Source: Candidatus Micrarchaeota archaeon (GTDB taxonomy: Archaea; Micrarchaeota; Micrarchaeia; Anstonellales; Bilamarchaeaceae). Taken from it: a stretch of 64,000 nt of DNA. This document shows positions 3,001 to 49,566 of the stretch, one piece after another. The stretch is from NCBI GenBank assembly GCA_018812715.1, contig JAHJCT010000017.1, positions 204,019-268,018 of the forward strand, in the 5' to 3' direction. The notes beneath the pieces are model-generated. The model did no database searches. It had not been told where the DNA came from and saw only the letters and a program-made list of their open reading frames with translations. A program made the translations under genes and the position numbers. Each line of letters opens with the position of its first letter. Positions within the stretch are counted from its first letter, which is position 1.

Positions 3001-6000
3001 TCAAGACATCAATTGTTCTTGAATATGCAGATGAATATGCTGCCATAAGTTCTCCTCTTACATCTTCTGGCAGTTCCCTTACTTGATCTAGACCAACTTC
3101 TGATTCCAATAATGGTGCAAGATGTTCTCGTTGTGCTTCAACTGCAACTACGAACTCTTCTCCAAACAATTCAACCATTCTTGCCCTGTTTTCTTCTCCT
3201 TGTGGATTTACTAACGCACGGTGGCATCTGATTAAAATACTTGCAAAAAGAACATTTTCTCCTTGTCTTAAATCTTCTCTGGTTGTACCTGGGCTTTCTA
3301 AGAATTGTAAATGTGGCGCATGTGCTTCAACAAGCAATACGAATTCCTCTCCATAATTTCTGACCAAGTCTCTTCTGTTGCTTTCTTCCAAACCAGCATA
3401 TGTTCTTGTAAGTGCATTAAAGAATCCTCTTTCATTCATGCTTCCAACAAACTCGTATAGTTCAGGATCTGCCCCATGCAAAACACTTGCAACAATCTCT
3501 TCTACGACTGCCTGTTTTTCAGGTGTAAGACTTCCAAACCAATCTAACAATTCTCTTAACTCCTGACTGTCAACATCTACACTTACAGTTCCAATCGCTC
3601 CGGTTACCCTTGTTAAATCCCCACCAGTTTGCGCTACATGTATCAAGGAGTATGCCATTTCAACTGATCTGCGAAGTTCTTGCGGATTTAACATTGAGTC
3701 AGACAATGTTCTTTGCTCTTGCTCCAATCTCTCAAGTGATTCTGCATCGGATGTAAGTCTGGATCTTCTTACTATTTCTCTGTTTTGTATCTCCCACCTT
3801 CTTATACGCTCCAATAAAAGTGCCCTTGCTGGTTCAAGAACAGAATATTGCAATTGTCTTCTAATATCCCCAATGTCATTTGCAATAGTGTGGCTGCGTG
3901 ATTCTATTGCCCTACTCCCCTCGCCTTCGATAACTACTGTAGGTGCAGTTACCACTTCTCTTGATACCACTGGCCTTACAAATAATGTTCCAAGTGCATC
4001 TCTTGCATCGACAAGAGCAACTCCTCCTCTGTTAATCGATTGTCTTGCCCTAGCTAATGCTGCCACCAATTGTACTGGGCCATATGAGTAAATTCTTCCT
4101 GCCCTCAATTCTCTTGTAGTTTCATCAGTCCTTTCTTGCAAAGCTGTTTCTATGCTCTGGACATCCCCAGAGAGCCATTCTAATTCAGCGCGATTTGTTT
4201 CAACAAAACCAACAAGTTCTTCCCCATATCGACTAACAAGCCTGCTTCTGTCTGTGCTATTTTCGTAAATATCATGCAGTGCAATTGCAAATGTCCCATA
4301 GGTATATCCAATGTTTTGCTGTATTTGTGTAACAACAGCGTCTTCACTTCTTGTGCGCATACCTTCTTCTATTTGTTCTATTGGAAGTACTAACCAATGA
4401 AGATTTTCTATATTTGTTTCAACAAAATTAACAAACTCTTCCCCATATCTGCTAACTAGTTCTGCCCTTCTTTCCCTCATTGTTTGTACTTCACTATATG
4501 CTTGCGTGAGGACAGTGCCAGCATTATTACCATATCTGCTTATCAGAGCAGTTGCGAGCGGATCTGCTTCTTCTCCTCTGCGGGTTCTTGTTCTTCTTTC
4601 AAGTTCTCCTTGGGCATCAGCAGGACTCATGTCAGCAACCCATGAAAGCTGATCAAAATTTTCTTCAACTGTTTGCATTTCTTGAACAACGTTATGCCCT
4701 ATTGTTCCTTCTTGCACTAATCTTGCATTTCCTCTTATTCTCTCCTCACGCAAGGCACTATAAACTTCTATTAATGCAGCTCCCCTATTTTCAACATCTA
4801 TTTCCAGAAGTTGAAGTGCTAGTGTATCCTCAAACCCAACTCTTCTACTCAGTTCTCTTTCGGCTTGCGTTCCATCTCTCATTAACCAGTCAATTCTGCT
4901 ATTTTGTATTATTACATTGACAAGCTCAGGTCCATAGTCAGTTCTTAATCTGTCAAGATCTGGAGTTTCTCTTGCCAGTTCAGTATAAATATCTCTTATT
5001 GCAATCGGGAGAATGTTTCTGCCAAATCCTCTTATGATCGCTGCTAATGTTTCATCATTATTTAGTTCAGCCCTATATAATGCTTGGAATTCATTCCAGA
5101 ATGTCTCATTCTCCTCTATTGGTCTACCAAGGAATCTTCCATTGAGTATTCCTCTAAATTCATTGCTTGCCTGCTGACTTCCAGTTGCAATAACCTCATT
5201 CATTAATCTGATTGCATGTCCTGCTTGTCCTCTTGCAACAATGTCAAGTAATGGTCCAATTACCTGCTCGTTCATCTGCGTTATTTCTGTATCGCTAACA
5301 TCTCTCCTTAGTACATCGCGCATAAAGCGTTGAACATGCGCATCTACATCCTGTCTTGTACCAGTTATGGCAAGATTATATACTTCTCGAACTAGTGTTG
5401 CAAATTCGCCGGGCTCTATCCCACTCATAATTCTGTTATAATTCTGTGTTATACTTGCTAAACCAGATGCTGTATCATTGTATATTCTTTCACGAAACTG
5501 TTCTGTAAATGCATCTGTAAATTCATCACTTGTATTTGCATTCCATATTCTTACAAATTCATCTCTACTTGTTTGATCGCCAGTAAGTATGAAATTCCTA
5601 AGATGATCTATTGCTATTCTTGCCTGTTCTGCTGGCATGCTTGTTATAACTAATTGTGTAAGATTCTCTCCATATCGTGCAGAAAGTTCTTCTACTGCCG
5701 CTCTTTGCAATTCTTTTCTTACAGCATTATCAATGGTATATCCTTCTTCCATCAATGCTCTTACTCTTCCGACATCAGTATCTGCCCTTACTGCTGTGCT
5801 GGTTTCTACTCTTTCCCTTAATTCATCTACTGCATCATTATTAGGAATACTTCTTGCCAATCCAGCTCTTATATTATACAACGTATCGATGAAGTCAACC
5901 ATAACAACAGGTTCTAATGGCCTTCTATCCTCTCTATAAGCCTCTAAAAGAGCACTCACTTGCGGATCTTCTCTAACCCGTTCCATTTCTTCAGAAAAGT

Positions 6001-24365: not shown

Positions 24366-24396
24366 AGAAACTTTGACCTCTTGCTAGATGAAATAA

Positions 24397-24855
24397 TCAG
24401 ATGTAATCCTCTCTTATATTACTATCTACGCGTTCACTTAGTTCTGCTTCATTTTGTATTTGTCTCATTTCTACTGCAGTGGTATGAAGTTTTGTTGTTA
24501 TTTTGTTGAATTCCTCTGTTAATCTTTCTACTGCTTTTTTTGTTGCCTCTATTCTTTTTTCAATTTCTGTGATGGCACTTTCCCTATCCATCTCTGCCAT
24601 ATATTGTGCCCCTATCGGAACAAGGATTTTTGTTTCGCTGATGGCGCTTTTTATCATAGCGCCGCCGCCTATCGGAACAAGAACTGATTTCTCCTTTGGT
24701 TCTTCTTTGATGTTCTCTATTGTAGTAAGTGCGTTTGTCAAATCTACAGTTGTTAATCCTATTCTTTCCGTTTCACGTTTTATTAATGCGATCTGTTCTT
24801 TGTATACTGCAAGTTCATAATTCAGTTGAGCTACTCTTTCTTCTATTGATGCCAT
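24397..24855 (-). CDS. pfdA: prefoldin alpha subunit
   Basis: Coiled coil, beta hairpins (VLVPIGGGAMIKSAI, ILVPIGAQYMAEMD), coiled coil. Conserved position between LX and ftsY. Confidence 0.8.
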   Translation of the reverse strand: MASIEERVAQLNYELAVYKEQIALIKRETERIGLTTVDLTNALTTIENIKEEPKEKSVLVPIGGGAMIKSAISETKILVPIGAQYMAEMDRESAITEIEKRIEATKKAVERLTEEFNKITTKLHTTAVEMRQIQNEAELSERVDSNIREDYI

Positions 24856-36251: not shown

Positions 36252-36296
36252 CTTGAAAATAAATTTTCAAGATCAGCCAACTTTGCATAAGCAAAG
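36252..36296. terminator. two AT-rich perfect hairpins between convergent transcription units
   Basis: cttgaaaat-aa-attttcaag (36252-36271) and ctttgc-ataa-gcaaag (36281-36296), bracketed by the direct repeat agtgggctttc (36239-36249 and 36295-36305). Confidence 0.35.
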
Positions 36297-36548
36297 TGGG
36301 CTTTCCAGTTAGCCTTGACATGAATATAAGGAGCCAATATCCGCTACTCAATCCTGGATCTTATAAGCACGGAACGATACATTTAGGGCTGCTTCTTCCG
36401 ATCTGACCCGGTTCATATATAATCCCGCCACATAAGGCAGGACGTCAACGCTTAAGATACTGGGCATACATCCACGGCAAAACGCCCCAGACCTTCGAGT
36501 CGCCTAAGGGGATTTGCGATGCCGGGACCCCTAGCCCCGCTCTAGCCC
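36290..36548 (-). ncRNA. signal recognition particle RNA (7S/SRP RNA); 3' end uncertain (36235-36330)
   Basis: ORF-free GC-rich island. The minus strand starts GGGCUAGAGCGGGGCUAGGGGUCCC with two 5' hairpins. It has a helix-6-like UCCUGCC-UUAUGU-GGCGGGA. It has the helix-8 signature CCGGGUCAGAUCGGAAGAAGCAGCCC (compare the universal GGUCAGGUCCGGAAGGAAGCAGCC). Confidence 0.7.
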
Positions 36549-36569
36549 ATTATTATAACGAAATTCTCC

Positions 36570-42784: not shown

Positions 42785-43081
42785 TCACAATCTATAAATT
42801 TGGACATAAGGAATTTTATTTATATACATAATTTCTTCTTTATCTATTATATCCATAGAAATAGCAATACTTACACATCTACTCCCAACTAAATTAGCAG
42901 AATCAAATTCTTTTAAAGCACTTTTAACGTCGTCATCTCCTGCTCTTTCTCCAATGTAAAATGCCCTATGCCTGTCAAGATCCATATACACAGTTCCATC
43001 ATCAAGAACCTTTCCAATTAGTTCTTTATCACAAATAGCAACTATGCGTCCTGTTTGAGTTTCGTGTATCTTCAAATACAT
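42785..43081 (-). CDS. DUF424 family protein
   Basis: MYLKIHETQTGRIVAICDKELIGKVL...FYIGE pattern. Confidence 0.5.
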   Translation of the reverse strand: MYLKIHETQTGRIVAICDKELIGKVLDDGTVYMDLDRHRAFYIGERAGDDDVKSALKEFDSANLVGSRCVSIAISMDIIDKEEIMYINKIPYVQIYRL

Positions 43082-43103
43082 AAAAAATTCTATATGTTAA
43101 TCT

Positions 43104-44213
43104 TTATCTGCTTTTGCAATAGTGCAAAGCCAATGCTTTATATGCATCTTTCCATTCTTTGATGCTTTTCATTCCTACATGTTCATTGGATCGATGAATT
43201 ACTTTGTTACCATTTTCATCATAACCAGTTGGTCCCATGCTAATAGTCGGAATGTTTTTCTCTGTGAAAAAATGCCCGTCACAGCCGCCCAATTTAATTC
43301 TAAGCTCTAACTTCCTTTCAAGTACTCTCTCTGCTACTTCTTTTGCATTTACAACTAATTCGTGATCTGGAGCAGTATACATTCCCTTAATCTTCATACT
43401 TATTTCAACTTTTGATTTTTCATCCATGAGACTCTCAAGATACTTCACAACGTTTTCCATATCTTCATTCACTGGCACTCTAATATCAAGTCCAAAGTAA
43501 CACTCTTCAGGTATTACATTGATTGTTTCTCCACCTCTGAAAAGTCCAATATTGCATGTTTTTAGATTAACTGATTCATCTCTAGTTGCTTTCAATATCA
43601 GTATTTTATCTTCAGCTATTTTGTTGATGATACGAATTGCTCTAAGAACAGCACTATCACCTGCATAAAGGCGTGACCCGTGTGCTCGTTTTCCAAATGT
43701 TTTTACATCTGCCCGAACAAGGCCTTTGTGCGCATATGCAATTCCTTCTCCACTTGGTTCCCCAATTACCATTCTTTTTGCATACAATCCTCTTTCTATA
43801 AGAGTCCTTGTTCCATGCTCTCCTCCTTTTTCTTCATCCCCAACAACCTGCAGAATTACCTTTCTCGAAAGATCCTCTTCAGCAAGTTCTAAGTATGCTA
43901 CAAGCATAGCTGCTAATCCGCCTTTCATATCAGTGGCTCCTAACCCGTAAAGCTCTCCACCTTTTATCACAGGTTCAAGCGGATCCGTTTCCCACCCAGT
44001 TCCTGGCGGCACAGTGTCATAATGTCCATTAAATCCTATCTCTGCCTCCCCTTCTCCAATGGTAGCATGTATATTCTTCACACCATTTGATTCAATTATT
44101 GACATTTCTATTCCAGATGTTTCAAGAAGTTCCTTTATGTAGAAAAACGGCCCATCTGCTCCATCATAACTTTTAAGCGCTATAAGGTCTTGAGTTATTT
44201 TTACTGGATCCAT
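43104..44213 (-). CDS. M20 family metallopeptidase (ArgE/DapE/LysK-like deacylase)
   Basis: GHYDTVPPG and GLGATDMKGGLAAM motifs. The ATG shares one base with the upstream TGA (TGATG). Confidence 0.75.
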   Translation of the reverse strand: MDPVKITQDLIALKSYDGADGPFFYIKELLETSGIEMSIIESNGVKNIHATIGEGEAEIGFNGHYDTVPPGTGWETDPLEPVIKGGELYGLGATDMKGGLAAMLVAYLELAEEDLSRKVILQVVGDEEKGGEHGTRTLIERGLYAKRMVIGEPSGEGIAYAHKGLVRADVKTFGKRAHGSRLYAGDSAVLRAIRIINKIAEDKILILKATRDESVNLKTCNIGLFRGGETINVIPEECYFGLDIRVPVNEDMENVVKYLESLMDEKSKVEISMKIKGMYTAPDHELVVNAKEVAERVLERKLELRIKLGGCDGHFFTEKNIPTISMGPTGYDENGNKVIHRSNEHVGMKSIKEWKDAYKALALHYCKSR

Positions 44214-44869
44214 CAAATCAAACCTGCAATAGAATTCAATATCAAAATGCCAAACATACTAACTACTACAAAGAAAAGAAAAATATTTGCTAATTTCATA
44301 AGTTCGAATACATCTTCTACTGATTTCTTTGTTTGCCCCAGTGTTTCTCTTTGGGATTGTACTCCGTCTTTTATATCGCCGATGTCTTCTCCCAATTCAT
44401 TTACTGTTGTTTTTTGCTCTTCAAATGCGGATACTGTTTCATTTAATTCCTGTGCCGATTCTTTTAATGATTCTGCAGCTTCCATATACTCTTCTTCAGG
44501 CATATCTACTCCAAGGCCTTCAATTCCAGATAATATCTCGCCAGTGCTGTTCAATGCATCTGCAGTTGATTGCAGCCCTTCTGAAAGTGGTTCTATCGAT
44601 TCCTGAAGAGATTCAAGTGCAGTGTCAGTAGAATTTAGCCCGCCTTCCAATGTTTCAAGTGTTTCTTCCATTTCAATCATATTTTGTCTTGCTTCTTCAA
44701 GATTGTTCAAAAGAGAGTTTTTGGTTTTGTCCATTGCATCGTTTATGATGAATACCAATACCAACAAGATAAAGCAACCTATAAATGCAATCGCCAATGA
44801 TGCTGCACGAAGAGGTTTTTTCAAATGTTCTAGTTTGAATTCATCCTCTTCAGATTTCTTTTTGGCCAT
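44213..44869 (-). CDS. membrane protein with two TM helices flanking a coiled-coil ectodomain, unknown function
   Basis: TM at aa ~20-45 and C-terminal FLFFVVVSMFGILILNSIAGL. Confidence 0.5.
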   Translation of the reverse strand: MAKKKSEEDEFKLEHLKKPLRAASLAIAFIGCFILLVLVFIINDAMDKTKNSLLNNLEEARQNMIEMEETLETLEGGLNSTDTALESLQESIEPLSEGLQSTADALNSTGEILSGIEGLGVDMPEEEYMEAAESLKESAQELNETVSAFEEQKTTVNELGEDIGDIKDGVQSQRETLGQTKKSVEDVFELMKLANIFLFFVVVSMFGILILNSIAGLI

Positions 44870-44927
44870 AGTTCTATCACTACATCTTTATTCTTAAAAT
44901 TTTGTTTTATTTTTTAGTTAAAAGTAT

Positions 44928-45039
44928 AATGCAGGAGGCGCTTGAATCGAGCTTCATTACAGTCAGTTTTTTGCCTCACTTTTCAAGGATCAGTTTTTTG
45001 GTTCTTTTTTCCTAAAAAAGAACAATGCAGGAGGAAGGA
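44928..45039 (+). repeat. direct repeat copy 1 (core 44951-45039) flanking the VapBC cassette
   Basis: The 89-bp core is 88/89 identical to 45812-45900. It contains a perfect 10-bp hairpin gttctttttt-cct-aaaaaagaac and starts and ends with AATGCAGGAGG. Confidence 0.85.
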
Positions 45040-45087
45040 CATTCGTAATTAGTACAGTGCAGACCCCCGAAATCTCGAGGACAGAGT

Positions 45088-45507
45088 TTATAACTTCTGC
45101 CCCAGCATTTCAATGAGTTCTTTTGTTGTGAGAACCTTTACCCCTTTCTGTTTCTTGAAGTGTTTATCATCACTCCAAATAGGAGCTTTGGTTGCCAAAG
45201 CTGCCGCAATGAACGGGACATCAGCTGAATCTATTTTTTCCATTATCCCCTTTGCTTCTCCCATGTATATAACAATTATTTTATCGTCTAGAATAGTCAT
45301 TTTTGAAAAAAGCTTGTTCAGAATCATCTCGAGATCTGTTTCTGATATTTTTGCTTTCTTGAGAATCTCCTTCTTATGATTGCCTAGTTCTTCCATTGAA
45401 AAGCCAATCGTAATGAGTTCTCCATCGAAATGGGTGATGATTTTCCTGGAAACCCCATCTCGCACTAGGGCAGCGATGATTCTGTTGGTATCTACAACAA
45501 GCCTCAT
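45088..45507 (-). CDS. vapC: PIN domain ribonuclease (VapC-like toxin)
   Basis: MRLVVDTNRIIAAL start and a late SDDKHF acidic motif. 4-nt overlap with the upstream antitoxin gene. Confidence 0.7.
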   Translation of the reverse strand: MRLVVDTNRIIAALVRDGVSRKIITHFDGELITIGFSMEELGNHKKEILKKAKISETDLEMILNKLFSKMTILDDKIIVIYMGEAKGIMEKIDSADVPFIAAALATKAPIWSDDKHFKKQKGVKVLTTKELIEMLGQKL

Positions 45508-45725
45508 TTTGAGAACCTTTTTCTCATTTTAGCTTTTACGTCATGGCCTATTCTCTCGGCATCTTCTTCAGTCATCTTACTGTTCTTCAGAACTTCGTCC
45601 ATCCAATGCAGCTCTCTAATTTTCTTCTCGAAAGCCTGTCTGGCCACGTCGCTCCATTTGAGCTCTGAATGGGCAATCATCTCTTTGTAGAGTTCTTCTG
45701 GAATCGAAAGCGTCATGTTAACCAT
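45504..45725 (-). CDS. vapB: VapB-like antitoxin (RHH-type N-terminus)
   Basis: MTLSIPEELYKEM beta-strand/helix start. Coupled to the PIN gene. Confidence 0.5.
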   Translation of the reverse strand: MVNMTLSIPEELYKEMIAHSELKWSDVARQAFEKKIRELHWMDEVLKNSKMTEEDAERIGHDVKAKMRKRFSK

Positions 45726-45786
45726 AATCTCACCTATTTGTATTATGTGCTAACACATATTTAAAGCTTTGCTACAAAAATGAGAA

Positions 45787-45900
45787 AATGCAAGAAAGGC
45801 ACTCGAAGCAAGCTTCATTACAGTCAGTTTTTTGCCTCACTTTTCAAGAATCAGTTTTTTGGTTCTTTTTTCCTAAAAAAGAACAATGCAGGAGGAAGGA
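45787..45900 (+). repeat. direct repeat copy 2 (core 45812-45900)
   Basis: See copy 1. The upstream extension is more diverged (aatgcaagaaaggcactcgaagca versus aatgcaggaggcgcttgaatcga). Confidence 0.85.
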
Positions 45901-46177
45901 TTGACGGCACTATTTTAGAGCACCAGTTTTTGGTGCAGCTTTCTAAAAAGGTGCATTCGAACCTTCGAAGGCGCGTAGCCCATGTGCCTTTTAGTAAAAG
46001 GCACCCCAAAACGGGGAGTTACATGTTAAGCCAGCAGATTTCCCAAACCGCAATTGGAAAAGGAAAATAACGCGACTATTTACGACCTTGTTTGTTGTTC
46101 CTCAGGCCTTTTTCCAGGGTTTTTGGCCGTGGAATGGCAGAGGTCAAAAGGCCCCTTGAGTCTGCCACGTTTGACCG
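45901..46177 (-). ncRNA. candidate structured ncRNA of unknown class (strand and ends uncertain)
   Basis: Locally GC-rich and has no credible ORF. Perfect hairpins at 45920-45936, 45984-46004, 46004-46016 and 46105-46128. Two interleaved perfect 7-bp helices at 46135-46176 suggest a pseudoknot. A promoter-like repeat lies immediately upstream on the minus strand. Confidence 0.3.
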
Positions 46178-46241
46178 CTTCGCTACTCCTGCAGAAACTT
46201 TCCTTAGATGAAACAATTGTTAAAGTTTCATCAAACTTCCT
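46178..46241. repeat. 64-bp perfect direct repeat, copy a
   Basis: cttcgctactcctgcagaaactttccttagatgaaacaattgttaaagtttcatcaaacttcct is identical to 46295-46358. Contains the 8-bp inverted repeat gatgaaac/gtttcatc. Confidence 0.9.
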
Positions 46242-46294
46242 GAGTTTTCCTCAGGATTGGAGTTGCGAATCGTGAACGGATTGCCGTTCAGGTA

Positions 46295-46358
46295 CTTCGC
46301 TACTCCTGCAGAAACTTTCCTTAGATGAAACAATTGTTAAAGTTTCATCAAACTTCCT
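46295..46358. repeat. 64-bp perfect direct repeat, copy b (period 117 bp)
   Basis: Identical to copy a. The 53-bp spacer carries two perfect 6-bp hairpins (cctgag-ttttc-ctcagg and gaacgg-attg-ccgttc). Confidence 0.9.
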
Positions 46359-46373
46359 AAGAAAAAATAAAAG
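46359..46373 (-). terminator. oligo-T stretch after the ferredoxin gene
   Basis: The minus strand reads CTTTTATTTTTTCTT directly after the stop codon. Confidence 0.4.
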
Positions 46374-46646
46374 TTAATACTCTACAACCACCTTGCCTTT
46401 CTTTATCTTGCATTGGCAAAGCAATCTTTCATCAGAACTTCCACCAAAAATCTCCAAACCTGCCTTTTCTGTTTCATTGGCCGGTTCAAGATTCTCCATT
46501 CCTTCAAGAACTTTCACTTTGCATGATCCGCAAGTTCCTGCTTTACATGCAAAAAGAATAGAACACTTTCCTTCTAGTTCAACAAGTGATGAACCATCGG
46601 GAACTTCAATTTTTTTTCCTTCATTTTTGATTTCTACAGTTGCCAT
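46374..46646 (-). CDS. 2Fe-2S ferredoxin-like protein
   Basis: CKAGTCGSCKV...C Cys spacing (Cx4Cx2C...C) in a 90-aa beta-grasp-sized protein. Confidence 0.7.
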   Translation of the reverse strand: MATVEIKNEGKKIEVPDGSSLVELEGKCSILFACKAGTCGSCKVKVLEGMENLEPANETEKAGLEIFGGSSDERLLCQCKIKKGKVVVEY

Positions 46647-46658
46647 AAAATCACACCA

Positions 46659-47240
46659 TCATTTTCTTGCGAAAACAAGATAAGCTGTATGCATAAGACC
46701 AAAATGCTTGGGTCTGAATCCTCGCTCTCTTGCCTCATATTCTCTTACAATTCCTTCTATTGTAAACACTTCACTAAAAACCCCTTCAGCAGCAATATGG
46801 AGTGCTTTTGCCTGTTCTGCATGCAAACAATGTGCTGCCAAATATCCATTCTTCTTCAGTGCCTTGTCTGCCATTTCAACTACTTTTTCTGCTTCTGCTA
46901 TATCACAAAAAACAAGATCCCAGGACCCATCGTTTTCATCTATTCCCTCCAGTACATCTTTATGCCTGAAAGTAACATTTTTCAATCCGCTGCGCTCAAC
47001 ATTTTTCTGTGCAAGGGCTAAAAATTCATCTCGTTTCTCATAACTTACGACTTCTTTAACAATATTGGCCAGTTGGACTGTCATAAAGCCTGTCCCTGAA
47101 CCAAGTTCAATTACTTTTGATTCTTTGCCAATGCCAGTATACCCAATTATCAATCCTGCATCCTTTGGTTGTGTTACTGCTGGGCCTCCTCTTTTCAATT
47201 TTGTCAATAATGCAGGAAAATGAAATTCAGTTTTCTTCAT
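46659..47240 (-). CDS. trmI: SAM-dependent tRNA (adenine-N1) methyltransferase, TrmI/Gcd14-like
   Basis: VIELGSGTGFMT motif I and a C-terminal ...RPKHFGLMHTAYLVFARK typical of TrmI. Confidence 0.65.
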   Translation of the reverse strand: MKKTEFHFPALLTKLKRGGPAVTQPKDAGLIIGYTGIGKESKVIELGSGTGFMTVQLANIVKEVVSYEKRDEFLALAQKNVERSGLKNVTFRHKDVLEGIDENDGSWDLVFCDIAEAEKVVEMADKALKKNGYLAAHCLHAEQAKALHIAAEGVFSEVFTIEGIVREYEARERGFRPKHFGLMHTAYLVFARK

Positions 47241-47287
47241 AGAAACTTTCCTCCGGCCATTCTCATGTTAAAGTTTCATCAAACTTC
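47241..47287. repeat. third, partial copy of the 64-bp repeat in the trmI 5' region
   Basis: agaaactttcct and gttaaagtttcatcaaacttc are identical to the repeat with the same 14-nt spacing, and only the central 14 nt differ. On the minus strand it abuts the trmI ATG. Confidence 0.7.
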
Positions 47288-47294
47288 TTAAGGT

Positions 47295-47732
47295 TTACTC
47301 CTTGAGTTTTTCTTTAAATTCTACTAATTTTTGCCTTAGTTCTGGATCACTTATTGCAAGTATTTCAATAGCCAGAATAGCCGCATTCTTTCCATTATTG
47401 ATTCCAACACTTGCAACTGGAACATTGGGTGGCATTTGGGCAATGGAAAGCAATGAATCAAGTCCTCCAAGGGCAGCATCAATAGGAACGCCTATAACTG
47501 GTTTTATTGTCTTTGATGCAACAACTCCTGGGAGTGCTGCACTCAGACCTGCAATTGCTATAAACACATCAGCAGTACTTTCTTTTACAAGCATTTCAAC
47601 TTTCTCTGGATTTCTGTGTGCAGATGCAACCTCAGATCTGTAAGATACTCCGAAAGCACTCAGCACACCCTCTACCTTTGTTACTATCTCCTCGTCGCTC
47701 TTGCTCCCGCTTAAAATAAGTACTTTTTCCAT
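47295..47732 (-). CDS. purE: PurE (N5-CAIR mutase / AIR carboxylase catalytic subunit)
   Basis: ILSGSKSD, ASAHRNP and AGLSAALPGVVAS motifs. Confidence 0.85.
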   Translation of the reverse strand: MEKVLILSGSKSDEEIVTKVEGVLSAFGVSYRSEVASAHRNPEKVEMLVKESTADVFIAIAGLSAALPGVVASKTIKPVIGVPIDAALGGLDSLLSIAQMPPNVPVASVGINNGKNAAILAIEILAISDPELRQKLVEFKEKLKE

Positions 47733-47781
47733 ACTAACGTCTTATGCTAAACTCTTTAAAAACATTGAACAGAGTCTCTTT

Positions 47782-48093
47782 ATGGTAAAAGTGCTTTCCT
47801 TGAAAAAAAGATACATTGCCTTTGAGCTCCGCGGAAAAGAAATGAATGAAAAGGAACTCAAACATGCCATTTATACAGAGGCACTCACATTCTTTGGTGA
47901 ATATGGCCTTTCTTATGCGGCGCTTAAACTAATTGAGTATAATCCAGTAACAAAAAGAGGAATACTTCGATGCGAAAGGGATTACAAAGACAAAGTTCTT
48001 GGTTTTTTAGCACTTTCTGAAATTCGTTTAGTGGCTCTAAAATCAAGCGGAACTCTCAAGAGCTTAGAAAGTACGCTTTCTTCTATCCATTGA
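47782..48093 (+). CDS. rnp2: RNase P protein component 2 (Pop5/Rpp14 family)
   Basis: KKRYIAFEL...FGEYG...GILRCERDYKDKV...SSGTLKS pattern. ATG at 47782. Confidence 0.6.
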   Translation: MVKVLSLKKRYIAFELRGKEMNEKELKHAIYTEALTFFGEYGLSYAALKLIEYNPVTKRGILRCERDYKDKVLGFLALSEIRLVALKSSGTLKSLESTLSSIH

Positions 48094-48374
48094 ATATATT
48101 CAGTATTGCCCCCCTCAACATCTATCTTCAATATTTCAGCTACTTTATATGGGTGATTCTGTTTGATGTACATCTCCAGTTGCTTGTATGCTTTTTCAGT
48201 TGTTTTTATCACAAGGAGGTATTCTGGACGTTTCTCTATTTTCCCTTTCCATTTGTAAATTGAATTTTCAACCTTGATCACATTAACACACGCAGCGAGT
48301 TCCTTTTCAACTAAATTCGTTGCTACTTCTTCTGCTTTTTCCTTATCCGGATATGCTGAAAGAACAATCTTCAT
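47982..48374 (-). CDS. cutA: CutA1 divalent-cation tolerance protein with a ~30-aa C-terminal extension
   Basis: ELAACVNV...YKWKGKIE...EYLLVIKT...HPYKVAEI pattern. The tail overlaps the 3' end of the Pop5 gene. Confidence 0.7.
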   Translation of the reverse strand: MKIVLSAYPDKEKAEEVATNLVEKELAACVNVIKVENSIYKWKGKIEKRPEYLLVIKTTEKAYKQLEMYIKQNHPYKVAEILKIDVEGGNTEYIQWIEESVLSKLLRVPLDFRATKRISESAKKPRTLSL

Positions 48375-48375
48375 A

Positions 48376-49566
48376 TTACCCCTTTTTCTTGAAAACAATC
48401 TCAACAACATCTCTGTGCTTTAGCACATGCTCCTTTCCAATTACCTGTTTTTTCTTTACATCTATTGCTTTGATGAAACCATTTCCTATATCGCTATGCA
48501 ATCTGAATGCAAAATCAATTGCAGTGGTGCCTGGTGGCATTAAATAGCAATCAGGGATCACATTTCCCTGCGAATCTTCTAGTTTTCCTACCCCGCCAGG
48601 AAAAACAGCTATATACTGAAGGAAATCAAATACGGCCGCATTCAAGCATTTTTGTACTCCTGTTCCGTTGCATTTATCACACACATTTTTCAATATCCCA
48701 AGTGCCTTTTTTTGCTGTTCATCTGCTTTTTTTATCTCAAATGTTTCATCGCCTGGGAGATAAGATACATACTCGTGCTTAGCAGCTTCTTTCAGGGCTA
48801 TCTCAGCTTCTGAAGAACATGGGATAATAAGATAATCTGGAAATTCTTTTTTCAATTTCTGATAATTGCCCCATCCATGCGGAAGATCACACTTATTTGC
48901 TGCGATTATTGTTGGTTTTCCCATATGCCTTAATTTTTTTGCAAGTGCCATCTTTTCTTCTTCTGTCCATTCTTCCAGGGCCTTCTCCTCGAGATTAAGG
49001 CTTTTCAATACTCTCCCAACTATCTCTCTATTCATGCCAAGCCCACTAAACTGTTCGGTAAGTGCATCTTCATTTTTGCCTTTGTGCTTTGCTTCTTTTT
49101 CTAGTTTTTTCCAATTCCTATCTAGAATTCCCTTTATCCAGAAATCAAGTTCTTCTTCAAGAAATCTTACATCATTACATGGATCGTAGCTGCCTGCAGA
49201 AACTTTCTCACCCACTTCATTTGTGGATCCGCTTGCATCAACAATATGAACGAGCACATCTGCCTGTCTCAAATCATCAAGAAATTTATTTCCTAGTCCT
49301 TTTCCTTCATGTGCTCCTGGTACTAGGCCAGCTACATCCAGAAGTTCAACCGGAACGAATCTTCTAGAATCTATACAATAACCAGCTCTTGGATTGCATT
49401 TCTTTCCAAATTCCTTATCTACACATTCTACTTCAACATAAGCCATCGCATGATTTGGTTTTATTGTAGTAAAAGGACGTGGCGATCGCTCTACAGTTGC
49501 AGATGTTGCTGCCATGAAAAATGTACTTTTCCCCGTACTAGGTTTGCCAACAATTCCAATAAGCAT
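48376..49566 (-). CDS. Obg-family GTPase (YchF/Ygr210-like) with C-terminal TGS domain
   Basis: [16 protein letters not shown]1 motif, DVAGLV G3, NKCD G4, and a TGS-like C-terminus. Confidence 0.8.

Follow-up and report, generated by a model that had tools for sequence, protein, structure and literature searches.

The 64,000-nt stretch of Micrarchaeota DNA analyzed here, referred to as the window, carries a perfect 64-bp direct repeat, raising the question of what its two copies head. The first-pass annotation took them for duplicated modules, either promoters or 5' leaders, that resemble the 5' region of trmI and point on the minus strand into non-coding DNA. The duplication, the strand and the kinship with trmI were all supported, whereas the non-coding target had to be abandoned: the downstream copy adjoins a 306-nt tRNA-Leu(CAA) gene and the upstream copy heads a recurrent leader hairpin. 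The repeat is probably a tandem duplication of a gene-start unit, consisting of a promoter cassette and the first 15 nt of tRNA-Leu(CAA).

The 64-bp repeat and the tRNA gene behind it

A repeat search returned 66 identical positions out of 67 between 46178-46244 and 46295-46361, with a start-to-start distance of 117 nt and perfect identity over the first 64 nt, in agreement with the repeat originally annotated (46178-46241 and 46295-46358). The third copy described next to trmI was recovered at 47226-47292 with an overall identity of 64% and retained the outer blocks, AGAAACTTTCCT and the 21-mer GTTAAAGTTTCATCAAACTTC, at the equal 24-nt offset; on the minus strand it runs to the trmI start codon at 47240 as ...GGAGGAAAGTTTCT-ATG, exactly as had been reported. 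The 21-mer occurred at exactly three sites in the window (46219, 46336 and 47267), tolerating up to three mismatches added none and the chance expectation from 100 shuffles was 0.00. The two hairpins noticed earlier in the 53-nt spacer, GAACGG/CCGTTC and CCTGAG/CTCAGG, were also found. On the minus strand each 64-bp copy contains a 46-nt cassette, GAAGTTTGATGAAACTTTAAC-N17-AAAGTTTC, followed by a T and then by GCAGGAGTAGCGAAG, which corresponds to nt 1-15 of tRNA-Leu(CAA). The elements involved are the following:

47242..47287, minus strand: third cassette, which includes GGAGG as a Shine-Dalgarno sequence, fills the 54-nt purE-trmI spacer and stops 1 nt short of the trmI ATG (47240)
46295..46358, minus strand: upstream 64-bp copy, made of cassette P1 (46356->46311), T46310 and X', a copy of tRNA-Leu nt 1-15 (46309->46295)
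46311..46356, minus strand: cassette P1, same sequence as P2, 17 nt 3' of the ferredoxin stop codon
46254..46309, minus strand: leader 'mini-element', a rod hairpin of roughly 55 nt formed by pairing of the tRNA nt 4-14 copy with its downstream complement UUCGCAACUCC, with GAACGG/CCGTTC as its apical part
46239..46255, minus strand: small hairpin CCUGAG-GAAAA-CUCAGG between the mini-element and P2; in L026 the stems are kept and the loop differs
46178..46241, minus strand: downstream 64-bp copy, made of cassette P2 (46239->46194), T46193 and the true tRNA-Leu nt 1-15 (46192->46178)
46194..46239, minus strand: cassette P2, GAAGTTTGATGAAACTTTAAC-N17-AAAGTTTC, with TTTAAC from -32 of tRNA +1, box 1 GAAACTTT and box 2 AAAGTTTC
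45887..46192 (46192->45887), minus strand: tRNA-Leu(CAA) gene, 306 nt, from hand-splicing, ARAGORN and ortholog comparison
46192-46155, 46039-46029, 45976-45955 and 45899-45887, minus strand: tRNA-Leu exons
46154-46040, minus strand: intron 1, 115 nt, position 37/38 (anticodon loop)
46028-45977, minus strand: intron 2, 52 nt, variable-arm loop
45954-45900, minus strand: intron 3, 55 nt, T-loop

Since tandem repeats can arise from collapsed or chimeric MAG assembly, an artefact, or a chance similarity, was taken into account, and either appears extremely improbable. No chance matches are expected, and a two-unit architecture with diverged sequence is also present in the orthologous loci L026, L043 and L042. 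Moreover, an independent Logan assembly of SRR2540949 (L001), 100% identical to the window over trmI-Fer2, terminates at the last unique k-mer ahead of the repeat; as the repeat has two copies, a de Bruijn break is expected exactly at this boundary.

Past the downstream copy, CGGTCAAACGTGGCAGACTCAAG provides the D arm and the anticodon arm of a tRNA with anticodon CAA, and about 300 nt beyond, GAAGGTTCGAAT...CCTTCCTCCTGCA provides the T arm and the acceptor 3' strand. Once 115, 52 and 55 nt were removed, ARAGORN called an 84-nt tRNA-Leu(CAA) with a long variable arm and A73. The spliced molecule forms a regular cloverleaf: its acceptor stem has 7 bp, the D, anticodon and T arms are all present, the T-loop is GGTTCGAAT, the variable arm reads U-GGC-UACGC-GCC-UUC and the discriminator A comes after CUCCUGC. 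On the unspliced window ARAGORN detected no tRNA of any kind, and Rfam gave no tRNA match over 45870-46330 even at E<=10. At the gathering threshold the sole Rfam match in the whole window was an SRP RNA located elsewhere, and permissive Rfam scans of 44850-46420 and 45870-46330 returned chance-level matches only. Both tools miss the gene because it carries two insertions more than its ortholog in L026, three introns in all. This ortholog, from another species with the syntenic order Fer2-trmI-purE-Pop5-CutA-GTPase, spans L026 725-916 (192 nt) and scored 40.2 bits with Rfam RF00005 (gathering score 29); it holds one insertion of 111 nt, in the anticodon loop, so that the 52 nt in the variable-arm loop and the 55 nt in the T-loop are the further insertions of the window.

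A metagenome scan with the 5' exon gave 38 further tRNA-Leu loci. Orthologs L039, L046 and L063 are intron-less, and L064 also reads so, while most orthologs have the 37/38 intron, ranging from 23 to about 180 nt. The variable-arm intron occurred at the same site in L042, L044 and L069 with a covarying junction helix (CATGT/ACATG vs CGCAT/ATGCG), and the T-loop intron was shared with L047 and L049. In intron 2 a 5-bp helix lies close to both junctions and covaries with L044. Local folds of introns 2 and 3 showed helices, and the textbook 3-4-3 bulge-helix-bulge motif was absent from them. Introns at various positions, including 59/60, and a splicing endonuclease of broad specificity have been described for the tRNAs of Micrarchaeota (ARMAN-2) (PMC3239211). 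On the basis of the spliced ARAGORN call, the score of the ortholog, the recurrent intron sites and these published introns, we read 46192->45887 as a putatively functional three-intron tRNA-Leu(CAA) gene.

Other interpretations of the region were rejected. No Pfam match was obtained for the ORFs over 45780-46275, which lie across the tRNA gene and were taken as spurious. A split tRNA of the Nanoarchaeum type was discarded, as the upstream unit holds nt 1-15 only and pairs with itself, and an intact tRNA follows in cis. A 15/16 intron with the two X copies as alternative exons was likewise discarded, the junction flanks not being complementary and thus forming no bulge-helix-bulge.

The cassette across Micrarchaeota

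The first-pass annotation had proposed searching for the 21-mer upstream of other genes. Exact copies were retrieved from 31 loci in other Micrarchaeota, distributed over about 15 Micrarchaeota/Bilamarchaeum MAGs, and most of them indeed lay against ATGs or tRNA 5' ends. AAAGTTTC followed TTTAAC after 16-17 nt in 36 of 36 aligned instances, and in 16 of the 36 the ATG of an ORF of at least 50 aa was located 0-2 nt downstream of the cassette. From their N-terminal sequences alone, we take the genes behind cassettes to encode RNAP subunits A', N and E', aRF1, L37Ae, GlyRS and HMG-CoA reductase; in L009 the gene, presumably EF-1alpha by the same kind of reading, starts 8 nt past the cassette with its own Shine-Dalgarno sequence in front. 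The L005 cassette finishes exactly at tRNA-Pro +1. Cassettes occupied orthologous positions at the same genes in different species and their interiors had diverged, tracking the local GC content, which argues that the cassette is old and under constraint.

The element was also found in other arrangements. In reversed orientation it constitutes the tRNA-Trp intron of two species (L010, L027) and abuts the stop codon of an ORF of about 180-240 aa in five (L003, L006, L013, L022, L028); in L006 a 111-aa gene, which we assume from its N-terminus to encode NAC, lies downstream on the same strand. L011 contains a plain 42-nt tandem array of cassettes, L020 a 19-nt sequence repeated on either side of two tandem cassettes, and L010 three tRNA-Trp 3' halves interleaved with cassettes. 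Duplicates flanking cassettes were seen in some cases only, such as L020 and the window. Exact copies numbered about 2-5 per genome, even with contigs of 240-480 kb, and the window holds three full cassettes and one partial near 24374. Among its 47 genes only trmI has a cassette, so that a role as the general promoter of this genome was dismissed. A CRISPR-like array, evoked by the GAAAC/GTTTC ends, was dismissed as well, spacers being absent and arrays of the L011 type being plain 42-nt repeats. The same applied to a box C/D sRNA: the 21-mer contains UGAUGA, but the 36 aligned instances have no conserved CUGA D box, and no Rfam C/D match was significant, the best being SNORD57, elsewhere, with 17.7 bits against a gathering score of 47. 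In the searchable literature we found no description of the cassette motif and nothing relevant on Micrarchaeota or DPANN promoters.

The trmI copy differs in history. At twelve orthologous purE-trmI junctions without a cassette the purE stop codon overlaps or abuts the trmI ATG, and the trmI upstream regions of L071 and L072 have an ordinary TATA-like sequence and no cassette. As the cassette is missing from orthologous junctions, its trmI copy is a lineage-specific insertion, and trmI is not where the element originally resided. The neighbouring genes in the window are purE and those for an Rpp14/Pop5-family RNase P protein, CutA, a GTPase and the 2Fe-2S ferredoxin.

The position of the conserved blocks suggested a promoter. 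Counted from tRNA +1 or from the ATG, TTTAAC begins at -31 to -33. In 12 of 39 tRNA-Leu upstream regions TTTA[AT] or TTTTA started between -35 and -29, while six other bins of 7 nt counted 0-2 each; its position was the same with and without a cassette, and the cassette-free orthologs included textbook boxes such as AACTTTAAAATA. Mainly because TTTAAC takes the TATA position of cassette-free orthologs, a placement that also agrees with box A in the tRNA promoters of Nanoarchaeum equitans, we infer that the cassette acts as a core promoter, with transcription probably starting at or next to the first nucleotide of the gene. A gene-start cassette so sharply conserved and common to many Micrarchaeota, organisms with almost no experimental genetics, could serve for predicting where transcription starts and which genes are highly expressed.

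Two observations go beyond this assignment. GGAGG preceded AAAGTTTC in 16 of 16 ATG-adjacent cassettes versus 4 of 20 others (Fisher p = 7e-7), a restricted distribution indicating a genuine Shine-Dalgarno sequence that must be transcribed. A start at the cassette end cannot supply it, and it presumably enters the transcripts by read-through from the upstream gene. Secondly, box 1 GAAACTTT and box 2 AAAGTTTC form an inverted repeat, and their complementarity outlasts sequence change, as in the compensated arm pairs GAAAATTT/AAATTTTC, TAAGTTTTT/AAAAACTTA and GAAGCTTT/AAAGCTTC. In alignment A1 all cells were paired and four of eight pairs had changed on both sides; the covariation score of the two boxes was 0.42 compared with 0.13 after shuffling, and none of 500 shuffles reached 0.42. 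This covariation lies outside the predictions of the promoter model. In 14 of 40 tRNA-Leu loci, versus 3.7% in shuffles, an inverted repeat with perfect arms of 6 bp or more finished at -0 to -4 of tRNA +1, with loops of 2-30 nt and at least seven arm sequences, and L071 and L072 hold more variants. Where the loop is short (2-4 nt), box 1 cannot serve as the TATA element if transcription is to begin where box 2 ends. The reversed cassettes described above and the small number of copies in the window also speak against the promoter model. A site for a dimeric transcription factor was disfavoured, as different compensatory arm variants coexist in one genome. An RNA-hairpin function is therefore a serious rival of the promoter function, or a second layer over it. 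The covarying inverted repeat and the hairpin mimicking the tRNA 5' end, described below, bear on how signals for transcription, processing and translation are packed into intergenic spacers of 50 nt.

The upstream copy and the two ends of the tRNA gene

The leader mini-element headed by P1 was present in 14 of 40 tRNA-Leu loci, 13 besides the window, with the general form GCAGGAGTAGCGA(AG), a variable hairpin and (A)TCGCCACTCCTGC. All 15 instances folded as rods, with z-scores from -1.7 to -5.8 and different apical sequences. The hairpins of L065 and L048 lie directly against the tRNA, leaving no space for a promoter in between, and about six mini-elements, in sequences read by eye, carry a TATA-like box placed 31-34 nt ahead of their first G. 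From these features we conclude that the mini-element probably represents the 5' end of a leader transcript. As candidate roles, the hairpin may neutralise the duplicated acceptor strand, stabilise the leader or mark a processing site. The layout of X', its complement (antiX) and the true tRNA start (X) suggests an origin by partial duplication with template switching.

A second cassette directly before the tRNA was found in the window, L026 and L043. The arrangement in L026 is the same, with a diverged P1, an intact 15-mer and stems retained with different loops. Estimated by eye, the identity of P1 and P2 is about 70% in L026 and about 79% in L043, and it reaches 100% only in the window; in general the two are more alike within one genome than across genomes. 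Their perfect identity in the window alone points to a recent gene conversion.

These elements can be combined into a model in which a duplicated promoter cassette heads a three-intron tRNA-Leu(CAA) gene, the account that we favour as the likeliest. Here, GAAACTTTAAC would be the BRE/TATA element and transcription would start at the end of AAAGTTTC or 1-2 nt from it. From such a start it follows that P2 would give a nearly leaderless pre-tRNA. P1 would produce a leader RNA of 117 nt beginning with the tRNA-like 15 nt, folding on itself and probably reading through into the tRNA. RNase P, of which the window encodes an Rpp14/Pop5-family protein, would trim the leader, and the splicing endonuclease would excise the introns. 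The X'-antiX-X layout would stem from an old event in which the 5' end of the tRNA was partially duplicated in direct-inverted-direct order, and the trmI copy from the later insertion of a protein-gene version of the cassette provided with the GGAGG ribosome-binding site.

The 3' end of the tRNA gene is duplicated as well, as indicated by the following elements:

45797..45900, no strand assigned: first copy of a 104-nt direct repeat, from 1 nt before tRNA exon 4, comprising the tRNA 3' end and 90 nt downstream
45088..45725, minus strand: vapBC-like pair between the 104-nt repeats, a PIN_2-domain protein of 139 aa and a 73-aa partner
44936..45039, no strand assigned: second copy of the 104-nt repeat, 95% identical
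about 44925-44938: third, partial copy, CCTCCTGCATT

The octamer TGCAGGAG occurred eight times in the window against 2.3 expected, and the five sites listed by the first-pass annotation were all retrieved (44930, 45026 and 45887 on the plus strand; 46193 and 46310 on the minus strand). Its interpretation as a terminator of the VapBC-flanking repeats was replaced: the octamer is part of the tRNA acceptor stem, being a T plus the acceptor 5' strand GCAGGAG or, when read on the plus strand, the sequence complementary to the acceptor 3' strand and discriminator CTCCTGCA. The two minus-strand octamers came with the promoter duplication. On the plus strand, 45887 is the true tRNA 3' end, and 45026 and 44930 are displaced copies, the tRNA 3' end having been duplicated together with the vapBC insertion. 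The vapBC pair is absent from this position in the syntenic L026, and its segment resembles the degenerate remnant of an insertion at the 3' end of the tRNA gene. The ORFs of 43000-49500, of which ten were scanned against Pfam, showed no integrase or transposase.

Competing readings and known systems

The cassette might instead be mainly an RNA element, a palindromic hairpin within the transcript whose base coincides exactly with the beginning or the end of a functional RNA. It could stabilise the RNA, mark a site of processing or 'punctuation', or act as a translational operator with the Shine-Dalgarno sequence in its loop; the 64-bp copies would then be duplicated leader structures within one long Fer2-tRNA transcript. 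We consider this possible, if on balance unlikely. The compensatory covariation of box 1 and box 2, with variants even within a genome (P1 versus P2 in L026 and L043), speaks for it, together with the inverted repeats at tRNA +1 in 14 of 40 loci and the further arms in L071 and L072, the Shine-Dalgarno sequence conserved before protein genes only and the presence of the element in either orientation at gene 3' ends and in the tRNA-Trp intron. However, GC-rich genomes lack a TATA-like sequence upstream of the cassette, which would thus still need to provide the promoter itself, and TTTAAC matches the TATA box position of cassette-free orthologs. Correction of a quasi-palindrome by template switching could also maintain the pairing of the arms without selection on RNA, and no archaeal nuclease is known to cut at the 3' base of such a hairpin, which counts against this reading. 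A broader proposal, that the cassette is a palindromic RNA 'gene boundary' element throughout Micrarchaeota and the leader hairpin a regulator or decoy of tRNA maturation, seems doubtful. If it were true, boundary hairpins at start codons, tRNA 5' and 3' ends and stop codons would punctuate or control the transcripts of a few core expression genes, and the hairpin mimicking the tRNA 5' end would be functional rather than the scar of a duplication.

Scars of mobile DNA, either MITE/PATE-type cassettes or att duplicates left by decayed elements integrated in tRNA-Leu, are an improbable source of the repeats. The cassette does have inverted termini of 8-11 bp, its trmI copy is a lineage-specific 54-nt insertion and both tRNA ends are duplicated, the 5' end as two copies of 15-64 nt and the 3' end through the core CCTCCTGCATT, present three times around vapBC. 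The flanking 19-nt repeats of L020, the interleaved tRNA-Trp 3' halves of L010 and the 42-nt array of L011 fit the same origin. On the other hand, a genome has only about 2-5 exact copies, orthologous positions with diverged interiors tracking the local GC content point to old vertical inheritance, the ORFs between 43000 and 49500, ten of them scanned against Pfam, include no integrase or transposase, and the leader hairpin recurs in many genomes with its fold kept and its apical sequence changed. Among palindromic repeats that carry promoters, the Correia elements of Neisseria and the bacterial REP sequences are short, have inverted termini, lie beside genes and can provide promoters or RNA hairpins. 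The cassette is distinguished from them by its low copy number, its exact placement 0-2 nt from an ATG or tRNA +1, its conservation at orthologous positions and the lack of a known transposase.

The preferred promoter cassette and its tRNA gene have their closest counterparts in the fixed-distance tRNA promoters of Nanoarchaeum, the tRNA introns of ARMAN-2 and the duplications of tRNA ends at integration sites. As in tRNA-gene integration sites, direct repeats from within the tRNA 3' end flank vapBC and a third core copy follows, but the neighbouring ORFs scanned contain no integrase. Unlike a simple att duplication, the 5' duplicate is accompanied by an inverted copy and forms a hairpin that recurs in other genomes.

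In Nanoarchaeum equitans the tRNA promoters have box A 26-27 nt upstream of the start, and identical promoter-leader duplicates occur at its two CRISPR leaders (PMC3491384). The cassette resembles the promoters of this DPANN archaeon in having a TTTAA-type box about 26-32 nt before tRNA +1, a promoter type that N. equitans reuses for tRNA fragments. It differs in the longer conserved block, a 21-mer and an 8-mer at fixed spacing with a covarying inverted repeat, and in serving protein genes as well, with an embedded Shine-Dalgarno sequence. Moreover, the organism studied here, unlike N. equitans, retains an RNase P protein (Rpp14/Pop5 family).

ARMAN-2/Ca. Micrarchaeum and the Thermoproteales possess several introns per tRNA, at 37/38 and at non-canonical positions including the T-loop, which standard finders miss (PMC3239211). 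The tRNA-Leu of the window is likewise a multi-intron gene, interrupted at 37/38 and in the T-loop and overlooked by standard tools; compared with those genes it combines introns in the anticodon loop, the variable-arm loop and the T-loop, three being the reported maximum per gene. The recovery of a tRNA-Leu(CAA) that standard finders do not see matters for counting tRNAs in DPANN genomes and for estimating how complete these genomes are.

Intron 1 of tRNA-Leu(CAA) and the 3' end of the gene

Window 46040-46154: intron 1 of tRNA-Leu(CAA), position 37/38
Window 44925-45900: segment at the tRNA-Leu 3' end
Window 45088-45725: vapBC-like pair, within that segment

The long 37/38 intron of tRNA-Leu(CAA) shows sequence conservation of its own across species, as judged from the window and its orthologs in seven metagenome loci of other Micrarchaeota (L026, L035, L037, L045, L051, L062 and L067), and the motifs common to these introns include GGCCAAAAACCCTGGAAAAAGGCCTGAGG, TAGTCGCGTTATTTTCC and GCGGTTTGGGAAATCTG. 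This sequence conservation suggests that the intron may have a role additional to its removal by splicing.

At the 3' end of the same gene, the vapBC-like pair is flanked on both sides by 104-nt direct repeats, which start 1 nt ahead of the final tRNA-Leu exon, and their core, CCTCCTGCATT, occurs in a third copy beyond the two repeats. The syntenic locus of another species, L026, does not carry the insertion, and no integrase was found among the ORFs scanned near it. The segment looks like a decayed, integrase-less insertion at the tRNA-Leu 3' end.

Cassettes associated with tRNA genes, tRNA fragments and ORFs

L010 5177-5530 and L027 3412-3539: tRNA-Trp(CCA) intron, reversed cassette
L004 1271-1360: cassette and apparent tRNA 3' half
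L011 999-1134: tandem cassette array, 3.2 units of 42 nt
L020, about 4030-4160: two tandem cassettes
Window 24366-24420 (-): partial cassette, ...TTTCATCTAGCAAGAGGTCAAAGTTTCT-ATG, upstream of a 453-aa ORF

In two species the promoter-like cassette, in reverse orientation, makes up the tRNA-Trp(CCA) intron, and in L010 this gene is followed by two further cassette-plus-3'-half units, one of them truncated. In L004 the cassette is directly followed by an apparent tRNA 3' half alone, consisting of the T arm and the acceptor 3' strand and ending in ...CTCAGCGACCCCA; this locus returned no tRNA call and may represent a split or fragmented tRNA gene. An identical 19-nt sequence, GTCAACAGCGTCTGACCAA, lies at both sides of the L020 pair. 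The partial cassette has the 12-mer AAAGTTTCTATG in common with trmI, and it also contains the TTTCATCTA motif of the tRNA-Leu cassettes.

Recurrent hairpins and the SRP RNA

Window 45985-46005 (intron 2), window 45860-45884, L027 1581-1776 and L071 4995-5015: N4-5 TTTT / AAAA N4-5 hairpins
Window 36296-36550 (-): SRP RNA, Rfam Bacteria_large_SRP, 65.2 bits (gathering 60)

One hairpin type, N4-5 TTTT followed by a 3-nt loop and AAAA N4-5 (for example GTGCCTTTTACTAAAAGGCAC, GCGCCTTTTCCCAAAAGGCGC and ACCTTTTACTAAAAGGT), is found repeatedly in different Micrarchaeota, within tRNA introns as well as in leaders and trailers, and the short-loop cassette variants follow the same pattern. The SRP RNA is picked up by a bacterial SRP model and not by an archaeal one; the rest of the genome is archaeal.
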